The notes under the pieces are model-generated. The model had not been told where the DNA came from. It did no database searches and was given only the letters and a program-made list of their open reading frames with translations. Position numbers and translations under genes: made by a program. Shown here one piece after another: positions 11,369-20,212 of a stretch of 21,262 nucleotides of DNA (position 1 is the first letter of the stretch; each line of letters starts with the position of its first letter). The DNA lies in IMG/VR virus record IMGVR_UViG_2703718838_000007; one strand, given 5' to 3'. Origin of the DNA: a virus (taxonomy: Duplodnaviria; Heunggongvirae; Uroviricota; Caudoviricetes).

Positions 11369-12418
11369 TTGAGCGGCAAAAAGAAATTCAGGGCGCCAAC
11401 TGCTGCGCCAGCCAGCACGGCCAGCAACGCAGCCACCCCGCTGGAAAGCGTGGAATCTTTCAGCTTTGGCGACCCGATCGCAGTCAACGATCGCGCGTCT
11501 CTTATGGAGTGCCTCGAATGCCATAACAATGGCCGCTGGTATGAACCACCGATCAGCCCCTACGGGCTTGCGCGCATGTTCGACGTTGCCGCCTATCACC
11601 AGTCACCGCTGATATTTAAACGCAATGTTATCGCCAGTTGCTACATACCACACCCGCTATTGACCCGGCAGGAGTTCACCGCCTGGGTGCAGGATTATTT
11701 AATTTTCGGTAACTGTTACATGGAATGCCGCCGCAACCGACTCGGCCAGCCGATTGAACTGCGGCACAGCCAGGCGAAATATACGCGGCGCGGCATAGAC
11801 CCGGCTCAATTCTGGTTTGTTCCGCGCTACGTTGACGATCACGCGTTCGAACCGGGCAGCGTCTGCCAGATCAAGAACCCCAGCCCGCACCAGGAGATCT
11901 ACGGCGCGCCGGAATATCTGGCCGCGCTACAAAGCGCCATGCTGAACGGTGAAGCAACGGTGTTCCGCCGCAACTACTACATTAACGGCAGTCATGCGGG
12001 TGTGATCGTCTACCTCACTGACCCGGTGGCGAATAATAACGATGTGGAAAAGCTTAAGAAGTCGCTGAAAGATGCACGCGGAAACGGTGCTTTTAAAAAC
12101 CTGTTTGTCTACGCGGCGGGCGGGAAAAAAGACGGCCTGCAAATTATGCCGTTCAGCCAGGTGGCGGCTAAGGATGAGTTTACCGGCATCAAAGACGCCA
12201 CCCGCGACGACCTGTTAGCCGCGCACCGCGTGCCGCCCGTTCTGATGGGGGTAATGCCGAATAACTCCGGTGGCTTCGGCGACGTAGAGAAAGCGGCGAA
12301 GGTGTTTTCCATCAACGAACTGGCCCCGATACAAGAAAGCCTGAAAGAGTTAAACGACTGGCTGGGGATCGACGTGGTGCGCTTCAACCCTTACGCACTG
12401 TTGCAGGCAGCGATCTGA
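11369..12418 (+). CDS. Q: Portal protein gpQ-like
   Basis: 349 aa. TTG start directly after the P stop, preceded by GGAGGAG; last structural gene before cos, as in P2. Confidence 0.8.
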   Translation: MSGKKKFRAPTAAPASTASNAATPLESVESFSFGDPIAVNDRASLMECLECHNNGRWYEPPISPYGLARMFDVAAYHQSPLIFKRNVIASCYIPHPLLTRQEFTAWVQDYLIFGNCYMECRRNRLGQPIELRHSQAKYTRRGIDPAQFWFVPRYVDDHAFEPGSVCQIKNPSPHQEIYGAPEYLAALQSAMLNGEATVFRRNYYINGSHAGVIVYLTDPVANNNDVEKLKKSLKDARGNGAFKNLFVYAAGGKKDGLQIMPFSQVAAKDEFTGIKDATRDDLLAAHRVPPVLMGVMPNNSGGFGDVEKAAKVFSINELAPIQESLKELNDWLGIDVVRFNPYALLQAAI

Positions 12419-12627: not shown

Positions 12628-12647
12628 GCTCATTCCCCCGCCTCGCC
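12628..12647 (-). other. cos (cohesive end) site
   Basis: Minus strand reads GGCGAGGCGGGGGAATGAG. The first 12 nt equal the start of the P2 cohesive end as I recall it (GGCGAGGCGGGGAAAGCAC). Location between Q and the tin/old-equivalent locus is as in P2. Confidence 0.55.
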
Positions 12648-12782: not shown

Positions 12783-12807
12783 AAAAAAATCCCGCCGAAG
12801 CGGGATT
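12783..12807 (-). terminator. Intrinsic terminator ending the accessory cassette
   Basis: On the minus strand, a GAATCCCGC-TTCG-GCGGGATT hairpin followed by seven T, 14 nt after the stop of the 12822..13934 gene. Confidence 0.65.
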
Positions 12808-12821
12808 CATTGGTTATCGAA

Positions 12822-13934
12822 TTATGCAGATTTCATTCGATAAGCAGATAAAGAAACAACATTTTCGGTAGCGATTTCTGGGGCAAAATCTAACGAATTA
12901 TCGTTCGCTAACTCCGCTAACATAGCTGGAGTAATACACAAACGCTTGGCTAATGACTCAACATCAACTGACAGATCCGTTAAGAGAAACTTCATTGCCT
13001 TATGAAATAGCTCTGGCTTTTCATTAGGAATCAAATAATCTTCTTTTTCATCAATGGCTTCCCCCTTGCGCTTTAAACCGAAGAATGCCGTTTTATATTG
13101 GGCATCGGTTAAAAGAGAAAGCTGATGTGCTCTATAAATTGTTGCTGCCTTACTAACTTTCCACGTCAGTTTAAACTGACTTAGCCCCTGCCAGTCGATA
13201 CGACCGCCAATTGGGCGAGGAAAATATTTTGCCATCGCCGATCGGGGTAGAAGCAATGCTGATGCAAAACGGTTAGCTTGAGATTCAGTTACCCGATCCC
13301 CCGTTGAAATACCTTCGTGCAAAATCAAATGTGCAACTTCGTGAGCAATATCAAAACGCTGACGGCAAGGCGATTTTTTAGCCGTATTTCTTACAATGAA
13401 TGGCCGACTTAAAGGAACAGAAAGCGCATCCACATCATCAGAGACAGAATCGAAAGAAGTAACAAATGCTCCCAGCTTTTCAGCAAGACGAGTCATGTTG
13501 TCAATCGGCCCAAAACCTAATCCCCAATCAGCCCGGCATTTCTCAGCGGCTCTTTCTATGTCCTCTTGAGTATTTACTCTCAGTTCAGGAAATCTTACTG
13601 GCGGTAAATTCAAGTACTCATCAAAAACTTCAATGAGACGGCGATACAATTCAGCTTTAGCGAGCGTCGCCCACTTAGTAGCCATACGTGTTGAACTACG
13701 CTTGCGGAAGTGAACGATCTCTTCATTCACTGGAGATTGCTCTTGTACTGCGAAAAATTCAGGCGTGACCAGCAATACGGCAGCTAATTTATTCGCAAGC
13801 TCAGGAGTAGGCACAGCCGAGCCGGATTCCAGCCGCTGAATGTACTGGCGGGTCTTATCGACCCGCTCAGCTACTTGCTCCAGTGATAACTCGTGATACA
13901 GACGAGCCAATCGCAAATTAGAACCGTTAAACAC
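12822..13934 (-). CDS. Fused HTH_XRE / M78 (ImmA/IrrE, COG2856-type) zinc metallopeptidase with a ~100-aa C-terminal extension
   Basis: 370 aa. HTH-like LSLEQVAERVDKTRQYIQRLESG at residues ~15-40; HExxH zinc motif in DIAHEVAHLILHEG near residue 200. GTG start at 13934 with AGGTGA upstream (no in-frame ATG retains the HTH). Confidence 0.7.
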   Translation of the reverse strand: MFNGSNLRLARLYHELSLEQVAERVDKTRQYIQRLESGSAVPTPELANKLAAVLLVTPEFFAVQEQSPVNEEIVHFRKRSSTRMATKWATLAKAELYRRLIEVFDEYLNLPPVRFPELRVNTQEDIERAAEKCRADWGLGFGPIDNMTRLAEKLGAFVTSFDSVSDDVDALSVPLSRPFIVRNTAKKSPCRQRFDIAHEVAHLILHEGISTGDRVTESQANRFASALLLPRSAMAKYFPRPIGGRIDWQGLSQFKLTWKVSKAATIYRAHQLSLLTDAQYKTAFFGLKRKGEAIDEKEDYLIPNEKPELFHKAMKFLLTDLSVDVESLAKRLCITPAMLAELANDNSLDFAPEIATENVVSLSAYRMKSA

Positions 13935-13947
13935 TTTTCACCTACTA

Positions 13948-14541
13948 TTATCCGTTATCGCTTTTCTTTTCCTTTTCAGGAACAGAAGCGCTGATATCAT
14001 CCAGCTCAATCTTAACAGGTGCTGGCGGGGTATCGTCTATAGAATGCAGCACAGTTACCCGTTCTTCGCCATACGTCCATAAAGAGAGCATTTCTTCCAG
14101 CGCATTATAACCCGCAAAATGCACTCGCCCACCTTCACCTTCGAACTCTGGTTTCTCTACAACGAAGCGCCAAATCGTAGGGATTGTATCTTCTGATGCG
14201 AATAACTGATCAACACTATTCTTTCGGAAGAAGTTAGCCTTTTTCGGATTAGTCGGATCATCGCTAAAAGAACGGATTGGGATACCGCCAATAGTGATTG
14301 TGTAATCGTTATTGGGATTAGAAAGCCCTAACCAGTCGTATTTTTTTGACATGCACAGTTTGACGATTCGATTCTTCTGGCGTCCAAAAGTGCATGTTGC
14401 GCGGGTATAATTATCATCAAGCGAAGAAGACAAAAGCTCATGTGTGTCTTCCTGCACTTTAAGGAGTGCCTCCGCAATGATAGATAAGCGTTCTTCGGTT
14501 AACTGCGGATGAAACGTCCAAGGTAATGGGTAATTTTGCAT
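13948..14541 (-). CDS. Hypothetical protein, unrecognised partner of the HTH-peptidase
   Basis: 197 aa, ATG at 14541 with AAAGGAAAG upstream. No transmembrane segment or catalytic motif recognisable by eye. Stop lies 13 nt before the next start; region is AT-richer than flanks by eye. Confidence 0.6.
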   Translation of the reverse strand: MQNYPLPWTFHPQLTEERLSIIAEALLKVQEDTHELLSSSLDDNYTRATCTFGRQKNRIVKLCMSKKYDWLGLSNPNNDYTITIGGIPIRSFSDDPTNPKKANFFRKNSVDQLFASEDTIPTIWRFVVEKPEFEGEGGRVHFAGYNALEEMLSLWTYGEERVTVLHSIDDTPPAPVKIELDDISASVPEKEKKSDNG

Positions 14542-14559: not shown

Positions 14560-14618
14560 GTGCAAAAATCAAACTTTGTCAACCGGGATAATGGTGCAGA
14601 ATTTTGATTTTGTCAACT
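14560..14618 (-). promoter_or_regulatory. Promoter with two imperfect ~25-bp direct repeats (operator-like) upstream of the 197-aa gene
   Basis: Minus-strand repeats GTTGACAAA...TGCAC at 14594-14618 and 14560-14584. The distal one gives -35 TTGACA, 17-bp spacer, -10 CATTAT. Lies in the 75-bp gap after the A stop. Confidence 0.4.
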
Positions 14619-16977
14619 AACCCCTGTTAATTTTTACAGCCACTTTCCAACGATTGAGAAGCTCGTCAGATTTTTTCTTAACTGCCATTTTTTCAGATGC
14701 CAATTTATCTACCCCAGATGCTGCGCGGTTGCTGGAAACTAACCGCCCATTTTGCACGGTCAAAACGAGATCGCCGCACGCCACTGACGCACCGGCCATC
14801 ATCGATCTGACCATTCCGGCGCTGGCATCAATCCCACGCAGCGCCAGCAGTTCACTGATCTGCTGCTCTTTCACGGATAGCCCGGCCCTCTCTTCCCGTT
14901 CCGGTGGCCGTTTTTTACGCTTACTTCGCACATCGTTACTAAGCCGCTGCGCCAGTTCTCGCTTTTCCTGCCGTGAAAGCGCATCAAAATTCACCGTCTC
15001 GCCCACTTCGTGATCGGCATGTTCAAGACCGTCTGCACCTGTCGCGGGATCCCGCGTACAGTTATTGACAGAACTCCGAGGGGCGGCGCTGCCGCCTGAA
15101 AAACCAACGTCAACGGCCACACCGTCAGCGCTCTGGCGCTTCGGCACGATTTTGTATTGAGTGGTGCGGGTGAAGATCAAAGAGTCATTGCCCGTAATCG
15201 GGCAGTAAATACCAGTGATTCGCTGGACGTTATCACCGTAGGCGTTGCCGTTTTCAGTGGTTTCATAGTTCAGACGGATGCGCAGCTTATCGCGCTCAAC
15301 CAACGGGCCACCCTGGGCTAATACGTAGTTATCCCATTCGCCACCGTTAGCGGCCTGCCGGGCGGTTTCCAGTTCAGGGTGTAACACCAGTTCGCGATCG
15401 CCCAGGCGGCGAAGTTCCCGATATACCGTGACCGGCGCACCGCCGATCTGCTGAAACTGGCGAATAGCCCAGCGCGATGCCCACGCACTAACGCGGAGTG
15501 ACATTTCTTTCAGGTCTTCCCCAGTTTCGTCGTCCTTCTCACCATCGAGCGCGAAGCCGTCGATATTCTTCGAAATGTATTTCGCTATGTAGCCGGTTGC
15601 GCTGCCGTGGGCATCGTCGATCGGCACAACCTGAAAGCGGTTTTCCTGCGCTCCCGGTTCGTTGCCGTCTTCTTTCAGGGCATATTTACGGAAGATTTCG
15701 CGCGCCTGCTCGACGCATTCCGGGCGCATAAAAAGAAGTAAATGCCAGTGGGGTGTTGCATCGTGGTGCGGTTCGACCACGCGGAAACCAAAGACGCGGA
15801 TCCCTTTTCTCTTCCAAGCTGCGCGGGTTCTCGCCCAGACTTTGCAAAGATATTGCTGCGTCTCGCGCGGCGACGCGCCACAGTATTTATTATTGCGGCG
15901 CCCGTTATGCTGCATGGAGTGGTAACGGGAAGGTGCTGTCAGCGTGTAGAAATCACCGGCCAACCCTTCCAGCTTCGCCAGATCTTCAAAGCCGCGCATT
16001 CTCGTCATGAGTTCGCGGCGACGGTTGGCCGGATTGGCAACACTGCCAGCGACTTTATCGATCAGTGAAATGCGCTCGCCCGTGTCCTGGTCTTCCAGTT
16101 CCATAGCCTTGAGGTATTCACGGTTAGCCTTTTTCTGGGCCAGCCATTCCGTAAGGCACGGGGCGCTACTGTATGGGGAAGATTTTTTCTGGACGTATCC
16201 CGCTGCGATCATCAAATGCTCACGCCACCGGGCATGGATACGGCGCAGGCGGTTTAACCACCACTGCGGTGACTCAAGACGGAGAACCGCGCGTAACGCG
16301 TCCTCCGCTTCAAGTTCTTCATTGCAATATGCTGTCCAACCTGGGATCGGCGTTTTCATATGCACCACCAGCGACGCAATACGGCCATAGCCAGAAAGCG
16401 CCGCGAACTCAGGATCTCCGGTGCGTGCCAATTGGTGATCGGACTCGCGTATAAACTCGCTCGTAAAGATATCGGCAAGCGTATAAGCCAGTCTTTTTAA
16501 CTCTTTCTTCCCTGCCCAGAGCATACGGAACAGCTGATCGCGGATTGGCAGCAGAATGCCGGGCATCACAGTGTCAGGCTGGTAAACACTGTTCACGCTA
16601 TCAATTCGCGTTAATACGTGGCGCTCAAAGGTATTAACCAGCCAGTGATCTGCTGCTTTGCGGTCTTTCGCGTCCAGTGCATCCAGCTTCGCGGCAAAGT
16701 GGCGGCGGACATACTGCGGAAGTGAAGCCAGACGGCGACGCAGCAGCTTGCCGCGCTCCGGCTTTTCGTCTTCCGCTACCAGTTCACTGAACGGAATATG
16801 CTTACGCGTGCCGTCCGGCGTGAGATAGTCGAAACCATCCAGCCCCGGCGCTACATCAACGCCAATCGGCTGGTATGGTTTGTTCCCGCCATAAGCGTAA
16901 GGGATAGCATTGTCAGTGCTACCCGGATACGGTGGAGGTGGAGAAGGGGCGCGACGGCCACGGGTTTCCGTGGTCAT
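14617..16977 (-). CDS. A: Rolling-circle replication initiator (endonuclease) gpA-like
   Basis: 786 aa. HUH-like PHWHLLLF and a paired-tyrosine YIAKYISK motif; size and position match P2 gpA. Confidence 0.85.
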   Translation of the reverse strand: MTTETRGRRAPSPPPPYPGSTDNAIPYAYGGNKPYQPIGVDVAPGLDGFDYLTPDGTRKHIPFSELVAEDEKPERGKLLRRRLASLPQYVRRHFAAKLDALDAKDRKAADHWLVNTFERHVLTRIDSVNSVYQPDTVMPGILLPIRDQLFRMLWAGKKELKRLAYTLADIFTSEFIRESDHQLARTGDPEFAALSGYGRIASLVVHMKTPIPGWTAYCNEELEAEDALRAVLRLESPQWWLNRLRRIHARWREHLMIAAGYVQKKSSPYSSAPCLTEWLAQKKANREYLKAMELEDQDTGERISLIDKVAGSVANPANRRRELMTRMRGFEDLAKLEGLAGDFYTLTAPSRYHSMQHNGRRNNKYCGASPRETQQYLCKVWARTRAAWKRKGIRVFGFRVVEPHHDATPHWHLLLFMRPECVEQAREIFRKYALKEDGNEPGAQENRFQVVPIDDAHGSATGYIAKYISKNIDGFALDGEKDDETGEDLKEMSLRVSAWASRWAIRQFQQIGGAPVTVYRELRRLGDRELVLHPELETARQAANGGEWDNYVLAQGGPLVERDKLRIRLNYETTENGNAYGDNVQRITGIYCPITGNDSLIFTRTTQYKIVPKRQSADGVAVDVGFSGGSAAPRSSVNNCTRDPATGADGLEHADHEVGETVNFDALSRQEKRELAQRLSNDVRSKRKKRPPEREERAGLSVKEQQISELLALRGIDASAGMVRSMMAGASVACGDLVLTVQNGRLVSSNRAASGVDKLASEKMAVKKKSDELLNRWKVAVKINRG

Positions 16978-17153
16978 ATTTGAACTACATCCCCTACTTT
17001 AACGGCTTGGGCTTCCTCTTCTGATTTCTTCAGAATTGTGGTTATTGACTCCCTTCCATAAGCTGTTACTTTCGCCTCAACCAACCAATACGGCGCAATC
17101 TCGCCACGACTCACGCTTATGATTTCAACGATCCAGGCGTCTATAAGATTCAT
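16974..17153 (-). CDS. Small hypothetical protein (59 aa), not in the ORF track
   Basis: Hand-translated MNLIDAWIVEIISVSRGEIAPYWLVEAKVTAYGRESITTILKKSEEEAQAVKVGDVVQI. Its ATG overlaps the methyltransferase stop (TAATG) and its TGA overlaps the A start (ATGA). Confidence 0.5.
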   Translation of the reverse strand: MNLIDAWIVEIISVSRGEIAPYWLVEAKVTAYGRESITTILKKSEEEAQAVKVGDVVQI

Positions 17154-18124
17154 TAAAAAGCCTCCAGATCGTCAAACGTGCCCGCCGCAACCATCGCGTT
17201 GTAAGCCGCATCACCCATCACGGCGCCACAATCAGGGCAACCGCCGCCGTAACACCCGCAGCAGTCGCAGACAGGCAGCACGCCGATCACTTCTTTGGCC
17301 TTCTGGCGGTTGTCTTTGTCGGTGCTGACGGAACGTTGCACGCTGATTTCGTGCATCTTGAAGGGCTGATAAATCGCGCGGGTGGCTTCGGTGTCGCTGT
17401 TTGAAATGACGACCTTCACGCCATGCTTACGGTTAACTTCCAGCAGTGCCTGGACTAACTGGCGGTGGTTGTCTTCCGTGAATGGTTCGGTATGGTATTG
17501 GGTGAAGTCCGCTGTTTTGCTCTCAGGCAGATAAGGCGGATCGCAGTAAACGAGAACATCGCCACCCGTGACGACCTGTAAAGAACGCTGGAACGGCGCG
17601 CAAAGAAATATTGCCTTTGTATCGTTGGCCTTTTCGGCAAACAGTCGGATTTCATTTTCTGGAAAGTAGACGCTCTTATACTTGCCAAACGGCACGTTAA
17701 AGCCGGTCTTCCGACTGTATCGGCATAAGCCGTTATAACCGTGGCGATTCAGATACAGGAATTGAGCAGCGCGCATAATGCACGCCATTTCAGCGCCATA
17801 ACGCAACCCACCGCTTTTTACCGTACCCACCTGCTTATTGAACGCGGCGCGGACTTCGTTGTATCCCTGCGGGCTGTTCTTACTGTTGAACAGTTCGCGG
17901 GCCGCATCGATCACTAAGTCCGGGTAACGGGTGACTTCCCGATACAGGTTAATAAGATCCGGGTTGATATCAGCCAGCACATAGCGGCGGTATTCAGTCG
18001 CCAGAAATACCGATGCGCCGCCTACGAACGGTTCGATCAGGCAGTCGGCTTTAGGAAGATGCGGCAGCAGGTCAGGGAGGGCACGGGTTTTACCCCCTGC
18101 CCATTTGATGAACGGGCGGATCAT
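17153..18124 (-). CDS. Dam-like N6-adenine DNA methyltransferase with a Cys-rich C-terminal extension
   Basis: ATG at 18124 gives MIRPFIKWAGGK; motif I-like EPFVGGASVF and catalytic DPPY. C-terminus carries VCDCCGCYGGGCPDC. The track's longer ORF starts at an upstream non-ATG codon. Confidence 0.8.
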   Translation of the reverse strand: MIRPFIKWAGGKTRALPDLLPHLPKADCLIEPFVGGASVFLATEYRRYVLADINPDLINLYREVTRYPDLVIDAARELFNSKNSPQGYNEVRAAFNKQVGTVKSGGLRYGAEMACIMRAAQFLYLNRHGYNGLCRYSRKTGFNVPFGKYKSVYFPENEIRLFAEKANDTKAIFLCAPFQRSLQVVTGGDVLVYCDPPYLPESKTADFTQYHTEPFTEDNHRQLVQALLEVNRKHGVKVVISNSDTEATRAIYQPFKMHEISVQRSVSTDKDNRQKAKEVIGVLPVCDCCGCYGGGCPDCGAVMGDAAYNAMVAAGTFDDLEAF

Positions 18125-18125
18125 T

Positions 18126-18338
18126 TTACAGGACTCCGTAAGGGGAAGAAGGAACAACCGGACGCTGCAACGCCGTGGTAAGGCGCTGGCGCATGTCGTC
18201 GATAAAGCAGGAAACAGAGGGATCGTCAGAAGAAAGGGTTAACTCACCATCGCGGCGGGTTTTAATCGTCAACCCTTCATGCTCAACAGCAGGTAAGAGA
18301 ACGTGCAGGATGAAGTTATATTGATCGCGTTTAGTCAT
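18126..18338 (-). CDS. Small hypothetical early protein (70 aa from the ATG at 18338)
   Basis: ATG at 18338 preceded by TGAGG; stop one nt before the methyltransferase start. An alternative ATG at 18371 is possible. Confidence 0.4.
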   Translation of the reverse strand: MTKRDQYNFILHVLLPAVEHEGLTIKTRRDGELTLSSDDPSVSCFIDDMRQRLTTALQRPVVPSSPYGVL

Positions 18339-18369
18339 GATTCGAAGCCTCAGGATGAGTGAAAGCGCC

Positions 18370-18385
18370 ATCACTTAATTAAGTG
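18370..18385. repeat. Perfect 16-bp palindrome TCACTTAATTAAGTGA
   Basis: Read directly. Sits in an AT-rich gap between two small early ORFs, with a second TTAATTAA at 18408-18415. Confidence 0.6.
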
Positions 18386-18429
18386 ACGACAGTGAAGACT
18401 GTTTTTTAATTAATATTTAACTGGCGTTG

Positions 18430-18660
18430 TTAGCCGATTAAATCTCTCAAAGAATTAACAAGGTTAAAAAGCAATCCTTTGTTTATCTTCTTCGTATAAA
18501 CAAAGGGCTTACTCATTCCCTTAATAAATTGAACCTTGCCAGGCTCAGGTTTAAAGAATTTCCCGTCTGGTGTTTCCAGCCAGCCGCGTGAGTTTTTGAA
18601 GTGTGTAACCTGGCACCCGTGCTTAAGCAGGCTTGCCAGTGATGGGCCTTCATCGTGCAT
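18430..18660 (-). CDS. Small hypothetical early protein (76 aa)
   Basis: ATG at 18660 preceded by AAGGGGG. Translation MHDEGPSLASLLKHGCQVTHF... looks protein-like. Confidence 0.45.
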   Translation of the reverse strand: MHDEGPSLASLLKHGCQVTHFKNSRGWLETPDGKFFKPEPGKVQFIKGMSKPFVYTKKINKGLLFNLVNSLRDLIG

Positions 18661-18895
18661 TACTGCCCCCTTGCTTATACATCTGATCAACCGTGCGCAT
18701 GGCTTCCGCTAAAGCAAAGTCACGCCCGTAATAATCGCCATTACTGGAAATACGATAAGAGTGCTTAAACGTAAATGGATTACGCGGGCACTTTTGAATC
18801 GTGAAGCCACGATATAAATATGAGTGACGACTTAACTGTATTAATTGCACAGCCACAAAAGCCCCCTCACATTCCCAATTTAAGCAATTCACCAT
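18650..18895 (-). CDS. Small hypothetical early protein (about 81 aa); start uncertain
   Basis: Only in-frame starts (18895, 18901) overlap the upstream gene by ~30 nt and lack a clear RBS. Contains a CxxxC pair. Confidence 0.3.
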   Translation of the reverse strand: MVNCLNWECEGAFVAVQLIQLSRHSYLYRGFTIQKCPRNPFTFKHSYRISSNGDYYGRDFALAEAMRTVDQMYKQGGSNAR

Positions 18896-19070
18896 CAACA
18901 TGGCGCGCCACGTCTTTGGTTATTTTCTTAATCAGCTTTTTATCCCTGATCATAAACTCGCCGCTATTGGTGCGAATCATGAAGCCCGTTTGCATATTTT
19001 TTAAATGGGTGTCCAGAATATTGTTACATTCACGCACCCGGTTTTCGTGGTTGGCTGTTTTCTGGCTCAT
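18867..19070 (-). CDS. Small hypothetical early protein (67 aa) immediately downstream of cox
   Basis: ATG at 19070 (MSQKTANHENRVRECNN...) with GAGG about 8 nt upstream, 11 nt after the cox stop. The longer track ORF 18867..19247 overlaps cox in another frame. Confidence 0.5.
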   Translation of the reverse strand: MSQKTANHENRVRECNNILDTHLKNMQTGFMIRTNSGEFMIRDKKLIKKITKDVARHVDGELLKLGM

Positions 19071-19080
19071 CGCGATAACC

Positions 19081-19362
19081 TCAAAGACCGATCCACAACA
19101 ACCACGCGTCGCGCTGTTCTCTCGGACGGTTGTAATAGGCGTCACGCATTGCGCGGTTGAACTCAGGAATATAGATCCAGTTCTCAGCGCGGGCGCCCAG
19201 GCTTTCCGGGTTCTTCCACGGGATGATCGGCAACTTACCGTCTTCAATCATGCTCTTAACCGTGGCGGGCTTCTTACCGATCAATTCGGCAAATTTTGGG
19301 TATGGAACCGCGTCAACAGCGTGACGCACTTCAATGAACCCCTCTAACTCTTTGTCTGTCAT
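19081..19362 (-). CDS. cox: Cox-like excisionase / lytic-switch regulator
   Basis: 93 aa with PYPKFAELIGKKPATVKSMIEDGKLPII...AYYNRPREQRDAWLLWIGL, matching the pattern I recall for P2 Cox. GAGGTAA RBS. Confidence 0.8.
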   Translation of the reverse strand: MTDKELEGFIEVRHAVDAVPYPKFAELIGKKPATVKSMIEDGKLPIIPWKNPESLGARAENWIYIPEFNRAMRDAYYNRPREQRDAWLLWIGL

Positions 19363-19452
19363 AGAATTACCTCTAATTGATTGTTGCCGGGATTTTTTCT
19401 CACGCCCCGGCGCGTGTTACCCTTGTAGCTCTCACACTAATAGGGCAAAAAA

Positions 19453-19692
19453 ATGGACGAATTTAAGGGCGTTTTTCCTCTACCGATTACTGACCTTAAA
19501 GGTCTTAAATTCGACGCCAAGACAGGCGAATTACAACTCGATGTAGTGCTTCCGCACCCTGCTGGTGATATTCCTCTGCGATTGCAGTTTTCAGCAGGGG
19601 TAACACAATCACTTGCATTGAACTTAGCGAGGACACACAAATTTCTGGATGAGCAACTCGAAGGAACACCAGTGACAAACGTTCTGCAATAA
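19453..19692 (+). CDS. Hypothetical 79-aa protein in the cox-C intergenic region, co-oriented with C and int
   Basis: Protein-like translation; AT-richer than neighbours by eye; weak RBS. Competes with an antisense ORF (19505..19789) that looks less protein-like. Confidence 0.35.
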   Translation: MDEFKGVFPLPITDLKGLKFDAKTGELQLDVVLPHPAGDIPLRLQFSAGVTQSLALNLARTHKFLDEQLEGTPVTNVLQ

Positions 19693-19891
19693 CCCGCATA
19701 AATCCACGTTTTTGACTCTCCTTAATCTGGCGGGATCTCATATGTAAGGCTCCGCCCGATTCTTCCTCTCCCTCATGTTTCATAACCATTTGTGCTAATC
19801 TCCCCGTTGGCGCTAGGCGCTTATTTCGGCTTGTAACTGCTTATATTGGCGGTTGCTCATGGTAGAGATTACCACCCTTAAGGAGAATGTT

Positions 19892-20212
19892 ATGGTAGAG
19901 ATCCCTACCCCGTCAAGCAGCGTGGGTGAAAAAATCAGAGCTATCAGGGATGCGGAGGGGTTAACAAGGCAGCAATTCTTTGAATTAACAGGAATACCTG
20001 CTGGCACGCAGAAGTATTACGAGACAGGAAGAGTGGAGAGTATTGGTAGCGATATCTTGCTTAAGATCACTCAGCATTCACGTTTCGCAAAATACACGCT
20101 CTGGCTTATGACAGATAAGACCGCCCCTCAAGCTGGTCAAATCGCACCGGCCCTCGCACACATTGGGCCAGAGTCAACTGGATCAGACCGCTCCGAGAAA
20201 CAAACTGGTTAA
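19892..20212 (+). CDS. C: Immunity repressor, P2 C-like
   Basis: ATG at 19892 with AAGGAG 6 nt upstream. C-terminal region (FAKYTLWLMTDKTAPQAGQIAPALAH) resembles P2 C as I recall it. The track's upstream start at 19853 has no RBS. Confidence 0.8.
   Translation: MVEIPTPSSSVGEKIRAIRDAEGLTRQQFFELTGIPAGTQKYYETGRVESIGSDILLKITQHSRFAKYTLWLMTDKTAPQAGQIAPALAHIGPESTGSDRSEKQTG

Follow-up and report, generated by a model that had tools for sequence, protein, structure and literature searches.

A 197-amino-acid RmrT and its RmrA partner in a P2-like prophage: a probable RosmerTA toxin and a tentative clamp-binding-like loop

What does a 197-amino-acid protein without a match in the standard domain libraries do directly upstream of a helix-turn-helix (HTH) protein that also carries a zinc-peptidase domain? 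This question is raised by the minus-strand gene at positions 13948 to 14541 of a stretch of 21,262 nucleotides from a virus of the Caudoviricetes (IMG/VR virus record IMGVR_UViG_2703718838_000007), which was analyzed at its full length and is called the window below. A sequence-only reading of this DNA had described the protein as an orphan candidate effector that its HTH-peptidase neighbor might regulate or neutralize. We propose that the gene, rmrT, very probably encodes the toxin of a toxin-antitoxin (TA) or abortive infection module of the RosmerTA type. Together with its partner gene rmrA, it lies in a P2-like prophage, where the two make up a self-contained cassette at the gpA-cos-gpQ hotspot. 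The pair as such is an already known RosmerTA system and the gene itself adds little as a discovery; the remaining interest lies in the target of the toxin, its dependence on ClpXP, a pair of operator-like repeats, and a loop motif that gives a lead toward the sliding clamp.

An RmrT/RmrA pair with tested relatives

The gene rmrT (13948..14541, minus strand like all features of the cassette described below) starts with an ATG at 14541, preceded at a distance of 9 nt by an AGGAA ribosome-binding site, and ends with a TAA stop codon at 13950-13948. Its product is an RmrT, apparently of the Vmi480 / E101_02645 type, and matches the PADLOC RmrT model PDLC03929 (E 1.6e-94, residues 1-196 of the 198-position profile) as well as phrog_5786, a PHROG entry without assigned function (E 2e-80). 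The same PADLOC model is found in 103 of 103 distant representatives of the family, and the protein is thus no orphan. Its sequence relatives fall into 88 clusters at 90% identity, while profile matches amount to 484 clusters at 50% identity, nearly all of them stand-alone proteins of ca. 200 amino acids, and a protein identical to that of the window occurs in many public enterobacterial genomes. Comparison with the copy of Klebsiella oxytoca gives a dN/dS of ca. 0.04, though synonymous sites are saturated in comparisons with more distant copies. This confirms rmrT as a real, conserved gene under strong purifying selection. Among the profile matches we also note a protein of 5046 amino acids (P0191) in which 12 separate stretches match RmrT profile positions 4-42; either it consists of repeats or, perhaps, it is an artefact of assembly.

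The partner gene rmrA (12822..13934) encodes a 370-amino-acid antitoxin or repressor candidate that corresponds to PADLOC RmrA PDLC03943 (E 9e-206) and matches the RmrA models of this resource at 1e-33 to 1e-206. It combines an HTH domain of the XRE type (HTH_3, residues 7-61, 13752-13916; Pfam E 2.5e-13) with an M78 zinc-peptidase domain (Peptidase_M78, residues 151-269, 13128-13484; Pfam E 4e-17) that carries an intact H198-E-x-x-H202 (codons 13329-13343), followed by an uncharacterised C-terminal region of ca. 100 amino acids. Below the cutoff of the model, RmrA is also related to NCBIfam NF052239, the "spr1629 family repressor/antitoxin" (E 3e-46). The two genes are separated by a gap of only 13 nt (13935-13947), which contains a ribosome-binding site, AGGTGA (13938..13943, read from the sequence), for the GTG start of rmrA at 13934. 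We surveyed the neighborhood of rmrT homologs in 60 loci, found with a 31-sequence alignment on one-genome-per-species contigs, of which 57 had enough sequence to be evaluated. An RmrA homolog lies directly downstream on the same strand in all 57, from Enterobacterales to Betaproteobacteria, and is better conserved than RmrT in every one of them. The tight coupling to the HTH-peptidase that the sequence-only reading had noticed is therefore borne out by the short gap and by the toxin-then-antitoxin order across the survey, while its suggestion that the architecture had here gained a new effector family is not supported, the combination being both catalogued and this widespread. Those traits of RosmerTA that can be read from sequence are present: an XRE-HTH and M78 partner, an adjacent and co-oriented RmrT gene, and a conserved two-gene neighborhood.

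RosmerTA was described by Millman et al. (2022) as a zinc-peptidase antitoxin with a toxin to which no function was assigned, and the deletion of rmrA could not be transformed. The verified system of E. coli OLC-716 is, like the window pair, a toxin-first two-gene operon with an XRE-HTH and M78 RmrA, but its RmrT (239 amino acids, PDLC03935) shows no significant sequence similarity to the RmrT of the window. A model of a homolog 93% identical to the OLC-716 toxin nevertheless has the same order of secondary structure elements and the same disordered acidic tail as window RmrT, which agrees with a remark of Ernits et al. on a fold common to Rosmer toxins.

Close relatives have been tested experimentally. 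Rousset et al. (2020/2021) found that clpP is essential in E. coli E101 owing to a prophage TA pair composed of the toxin E101_02645 (WP_001179380.1, no domain) and the antidote E101_02644 (WP_000481765.1), which carries the clpP dependence over to K-12 and whose toxicity under clpP repression is relieved by toxin knock-down or by the toxin substitution T46S. The antidote accession is annotated directly downstream of the 197-amino-acid WP_001179382.1 in several complete genomes; window RmrA is 77% identical to the former, and window RmrT is 62% identical to the latter and keeps T46 (codon 14404..14406), which is equated with T46 of the E101 toxin by alignment position and lies in the most conserved block of the protein, LDDNYTRxTxTFGRQ. 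The E101 pair resides in lambdoid prophages by hokD and the nin region, whereas the window pair occupies the P2 hotspot. From the Vibrio mimicus island MGIVmi1, Luo et al. (2015) described the 198-amino-acid Vmi480, which kills E. coli unless Vmi470 is co-expressed, and found that vmi470 cannot be deleted alone; Vmi480 now serves as the toxin of a counterselection marker (pLP12). As in the window, this toxin is encoded at a short distance upstream of an HTH and zinc-peptidase antitoxin (362 amino acids), though on a mobilisable genomic island instead of a prophage, and Rousset et al. reported identities of 33% and 42% between Vmi480/Vmi470 and the E101 pair. In Pectobacteriaceae, transposon sequencing (Tn-seq) found rmrA to be essential and clpX to be essential only in strains that carry RosmerTA.

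In these relatives, the upstream protein is toxic, the HTH and zinc-peptidase protein neutralizes it, and toxicity appears upon depletion of ClpP or ClpX. The earlier proposal that the 197-amino-acid protein is an effector neutralized by the HTH-peptidase thereby gains support from the PADLOC assignment of both genes, from the relief of E101 toxicity by knock-down or T46S, and from the rescue of Vmi480-expressing cells by Vmi470. The same findings make it highly improbable that roles are reversed as in PD-lambda-2, where an Xre-peptidase fusion (B) is toxic and an upstream HigB-like protein (A) rescues, so that the 197-amino-acid protein would be the antidote of a toxic HTH-peptidase: Vmi480 is lethal alone, its antitoxin gene cannot be lost alone, interference with the upstream gene of E101 is what relieves toxicity, and it is rmrA that scores as essential in the Tn-seq data.

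Some points weigh against extending all of this to rmrT as the toxin of an anti-phage module. Compared directly, the toxins of the window and of the verified system are not recognizably related (BLASTP E 11, hhalign probability 1.9%), and phage defense is known for other RmrT/RmrA combinations and not for this subfamily; the papers searched contain no report of anti-phage activity of an RmrT of the Vmi480/E101 type. The apparent link to the E101 toxin rests on the antidote accession and on the near-identical alleles WP_001179381/382, not on WP_001179380.1, and the putative relationship to Vmi480 rests on its reported 33% identity to the E101 toxin. Furthermore, RmrA could possibly neutralize RmrT by binding, by cleavage, or by repression.

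Operon signals and the connection to ClpXP

One base past the stop codon of gpA begins a promoter-like site (14588..14616; 10/12 consensus positions) composed of a -35 element TTGACA (14616-14611), a 17-nt spacer, and a -10 element CATTAT (14593-14588), which is kept in P2-like and lambdoid copies of the cassette. Two operator-like repeats of 23 bp, both of the form TTGACAAA-N10-TGCAC and recognized by their conserved ends, accompany it: repeat 1 (14594..14616) overlaps the -35 element and the spacer, and repeat 2 (14560..14582) surrounds the expected transcription start 34 bp further downstream, a distance that is 33-34 bp across loci. In five E. coli and window (enterobacterial) loci, the ends of the consensus TTGAC(A/G)A-N10-TGCAC are invariant while the spacers vary, and most of 24 loci checked, as distant as Betaproteobacteria and including some with toxins only 32-40% identical, have the same double repeat. 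Judging from this conservation, the two repeats are likely operators bound by the HTH domain of RmrA, which would cover both the promoter and the start of the transcript. A hairpin with a T-run resembling an intrinsic terminator (12787..12808; 9-bp stem with five GC pairs, TTTTT tail) lies 14 nt past the rmrA stop codon and closes the two-gene operon.

A comparable domain chemistry of HTH repressor and M78 metallopeptidase is known from ImmR/ImmA, DdrO/IrrE, and CapH/CapP, and window RmrA indeed matches capP (1e-18) and capH (1e-7) in PADLOC. In those systems, however, two separate proteins control other genes, whereas in the window a single protein unites both domains and has a toxin as its partner. 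A related arrangement is the Rosmer pair RipA/RipB of Streptococcus pneumoniae (spr1630/spr1629), which needs ClpX to stay silent and whose described role is the induction of competence; the corresponding NCBIfam entries are named "spr1630 family ClpXP-sensitive toxin" (NF052238) and "spr1629 family repressor/antitoxin" (NF052239). RipA belongs to a different RmrT family (PDLC03931) than the toxin of the window, but window RmrA is kin to the spr1629 family, and RipA has a conserved Q-L...L-F peptide just before the corresponding strand.

Taken together with the behavior of the tested relatives, a scheme can be drawn in which RmrA would repress the rmrT-rmrA operon through the two repeats and, jointly with ClpXP, would hold RmrT inactive or degraded and short-lived. 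Infection by a phage might then disturb this control by RmrA and ClpXP and allow RmrT to arrest the cell, possibly by blocking the sliding clamp. Such a scheme would follow the logic of type VI systems like SocAB, with a cellular protease on the antitoxic side as ClpXP is for SocB. In SocAB of Caulobacter, ClpXP keeps the toxin harmless and is hence essential when the toxin is present. The likeness is one of logic, as there is no homology between SocAB and the window pair and SocA is a small adaptor protein instead of an HTH-peptidase. The mechanism of the Vmi480/E101 toxin family matters well beyond this locus, given that Vmi480 is a widely used counterselection marker, that the family renders ClpP and ClpX conditionally essential, and that it belongs to an anti-phage family. 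The conserved operator pair offers a handle on its regulation, and the loop motif described below offers a cheap and direct way into the question of its target.

Predicted fold, tail, and a clamp-binding-like loop

The AlphaFold2 model of RmrT, computed from 31 homologs (predicted local distance difference test [pLDDT] of 81, core >90), describes a soluble protein of the alpha/beta type. Its chain runs from two long helices through three strands, then through a long loop that contains a short helix, and finally through three further strands into a disordered tail. The protein has no transmembrane helix (highest 19-residue Kyte-Doolittle hydropathy 0.51), motif scans found no Walker A, HExxH, or HNH motif, and searches of Pfam, NCBIfam, and PDB sequences gave nothing significant, whether the query was the protein itself or a profile built from 31 or from 103 homologs. 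The sequence-only reading had been right in recognizing no transmembrane helix, nucleotide-binding loop, or nuclease or peptidase motif, and its statement that the protein has no recognisable motif is accurate with regard to standard libraries like Pfam and NCBIfam. The remote-homology search and structure comparison that it had recommended had a mixed outcome, with no hits in Pfam or NCBIfam and nothing significant among the folds of PDB and BFVD when the RmrT model was run through Foldseek, but with a clear assignment to RmrT by PADLOC. A weak match to a RIAM PH-domain (E 0.14) was set aside as chance.

The same data bear on what kind of toxin RmrT might be. The RmrT-D5 of Gordonia phage Kita depolarizes membranes, but a comparable membrane mechanism is unlikely for window RmrT because it has no hydrophobic segment, as seen from its low hydropathy and the soluble model. 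Across 115 diverse RmrT members, the conserved polar residues are D42, R54, R90, and R125, with partial conservation of D95, E111, and E129. If RmrT, once released, degraded DNA or RNA as a PD-(D/E)xK-like nuclease, one would expect a conserved catalytic D together with a (D/E)-x-K, but neither the folded part of RmrT nor this conservation profile contains such a motif; because no nuclease-type motif is seen among the conserved residues, we do not file RmrT as a PD-(D/E)xK protein and consider this activity very unlikely.

The C-terminal tail (residues 161-197, 13951..14061) is acidic and charged and ends in ...PEKEKKSDNG. The sequence-only reading had pointed to this charged end, which is indeed present, is predicted to be disordered (residues ca. 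160-197, with pLDDT <50 at 162-169 and 184-197), and recurs as a charged tail across the family. Embedded in it is a short conserved patch, P-x-V-x-I-E-L-D-x-I. The tails of two sequence-unrelated RmrT families have this hydrophobic and acidic patch in common (PVKIELDDIS versus FTPDIDLDIL), and it is the sole BLASTP similarity between window RmrT and the verified RmrT. RmrA or ClpX might use it for docking or as a degron.

A target is known for one RmrT only, namely RipA. Its toxicity is suppressed when the hydrophobic pocket of DnaN, the beta sliding clamp, carries mutations that also abolish the interaction of both proteins in a yeast two-hybrid assay. The clamp pocket is also where SocB acts. 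Bacterial clamp-binding motifs are known to take the forms QL[S/D]LF, QxxLF, xxxLF (weak binders), and the hexapeptide QLSLPL (PMC12309361), and in many members of the window RmrT family the loop between strands 3 and 4 carries peptides of the type E-x-x-Q-L-S-L-x-F. The pattern Q[LMI]x[LMF][FL] or Q[LMI]x[LMF]x[FL] occurs in 46 of the 103 representatives, homologs that are not independent samples, versus 3.95 expected from shuffles (maximum 10), and 46 of 48 motif matches fall in this single loop; the strict forms QL[SD]LF or QLxLx[LF] are present in 21 of the 103 versus 0.77 expected, and among the other members, the majority show either a Q-x-x-hydrophobic-x-hydrophobic variant or an anchor of the form [LM]F. 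In window RmrT, the loop contains V110-D-Q-L-F114 (codons 14200..14214), a degenerate xxxLF form that aligns in register and with the same loop length to QLDLF of a relative (P0155), and its close homologs all keep L113 and have a conserved F or W at position 114.

Clamp-motif-like peptides (QLxLxF / QLDLF / xxxLF) are not confined to this family: at least four RmrT families without significant sequence similarity to each other have one in the corresponding exposed loop. In the family of the verified RmrT, QLKLDL-type peptides are present in 17 of 26 members, with NLDLF or QGDLF in distant ones, and sit in a topologically equivalent loop with pLDDT <50, while the RmrTs of phiCD27, an Enterococcus phage, and a Lacticaseibacillus phage have QLSFF, QYNLF, and EISLF, respectively.

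We tentatively suggest that DnaN may be the target of window RmrT and that it might be contacted through the exposed loop 110-VDQLF-114. The broader idea, that several sequence-unrelated RmrT families including the Vmi480/E101 type are replication poisons which plug the protein-binding cleft of the clamp by a clamp-binding motif on a loop and are restrained by a relay of RmrA and ClpXP, seems possible but far from assured. If true, RosmerTA would be an abortive infection family that resembles type VI systems and targets the clamp, and window RmrT would be a member with a weak motif (xxxLF). Besides the relatedness of the homologs counted above, several findings weigh against the clamp as target. 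VDQLF of the window lacks Q1 and L2 and is thus a weak form of the motif, and the motif of the RipA family is itself non-canonical (QLTADSxLF in staphylococcal members). The DnaN interaction is known from yeast two-hybrid data and dnaN suppressors for RipA only. The same regular expression also matches 271-QLSLL-275 of RmrA (13108-13122) in 30 of 48 homologs; this peptide probably belongs to the terminal helix of the M78 domain and is presumably structural, so that a match to the pattern alone is not specific.

A different reading of the loop, which strikes us as rather doubtful, is that its peptide is a recognition or cleavage site for RmrA (or ClpX) and that the target of the toxin is contacted elsewhere. 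M78 peptidases of the ImmA/CapP type do cleave their partners at specific exposed sites, the loop is both exposed and conserved in families that have only the RmrA partner in common, and the tail patch is likewise common to two RmrT families. Still, the variation of the peptide mirrors that of clamp-binding motifs, with pentapeptide QLDLF and hexapeptide QLxLx[LF] replacing each other at one position, and genetic data connect one RmrT with the DnaN pocket, both of which favor the clamp-binding interpretation.

The prophage setting

With genes for capsid, scaffold, terminase, portal, gpA, a Dam-like methylase, and an integrase, the window represents a P2-like prophage. The cassette sits between the stop codon (14617) of a replication endonuclease of the P2 gpA type (14617..16977, minus strand; Pfam Phage_GPA, E 9e-105) and the probable cos end at 12647, which form the borders of the hotspot; beyond the latter follows the gpQ-like portal protein (11369..12418, plus strand; Pfam Phage_portal), which is a portal also in matching E. 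coli and Salmonella phages. The probable cos end, GGCGAGGCGGGGGAATGAG (12629..12647, minus strand), lies ca. 140 nt beyond the rmrA terminator and was placed by the genome ends of Salmonella phages SEN4/SEN5, whose position 1 aligns to window position 12647, while a P2 cos sequence used for comparison had no match within three mismatches. GC content is ca. 0.45 at the cassette versus 0.55-0.58 in its flanks. The gpA-cos-gpQ hotspot of P2-like phages harbors old/tin in P2 and many defense systems (PMC9122126). The same pair is found in the same place in E. coli P2-like prophages, a version that is 62-63% identical occurs in lambdoid prophages beside hokD, and further copies are on plasmids.

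This setting helps to judge whether the pair might be an addiction, prophage-maintenance, or regulatory module only, coupled to ClpXP or stress and without a role in excluding phages. We consider this unlikely, since the cassette occupies a hotspot enriched in defense systems and moves as a unit among different prophage types, and since two other RmrT/RmrA combinations protect against phages. It is not without basis, though: anti-phage activity is known outside this RmrT subfamily only, the description of Vmi480/470 is that of a simple TA system on a genomic island, pneumococcal RipAB acts in competence signaling and not in defense, and peptidases of the ImmA type govern the induction of mobile elements. 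A function in addiction or maintenance would also be compatible with a role in defense.

Some further observations were made on the hotspot and the neighboring genes. In a P2-like prophage of E. coli CFIAFB20190157 (L002, 4740-6019), the RosmerTA pair shares one hotspot with a ParM/partition module, an arrangement that agrees with the partition genes reported from this hotspot in a quarter of P2-like phages. The Dam-like DNA methyltransferase of the window (phrog_56; 17153-18157, minus strand) has an unusual Cys/Gly-rich C-terminal stretch, CDCCGCYGGGCPDCG, and its gene is annotated as a broken pseudogene in an E. coli relative (L001). Between methylase and integrase lies an open reading frame for 175 amino acids (18820-19347, plus strand) whose product has no PHROG match; it is contained in a second stretch of low GC content (ca. 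0.46-0.48 at 18000-20000) and might belong to the immunity region or else represent a further accessory gene.

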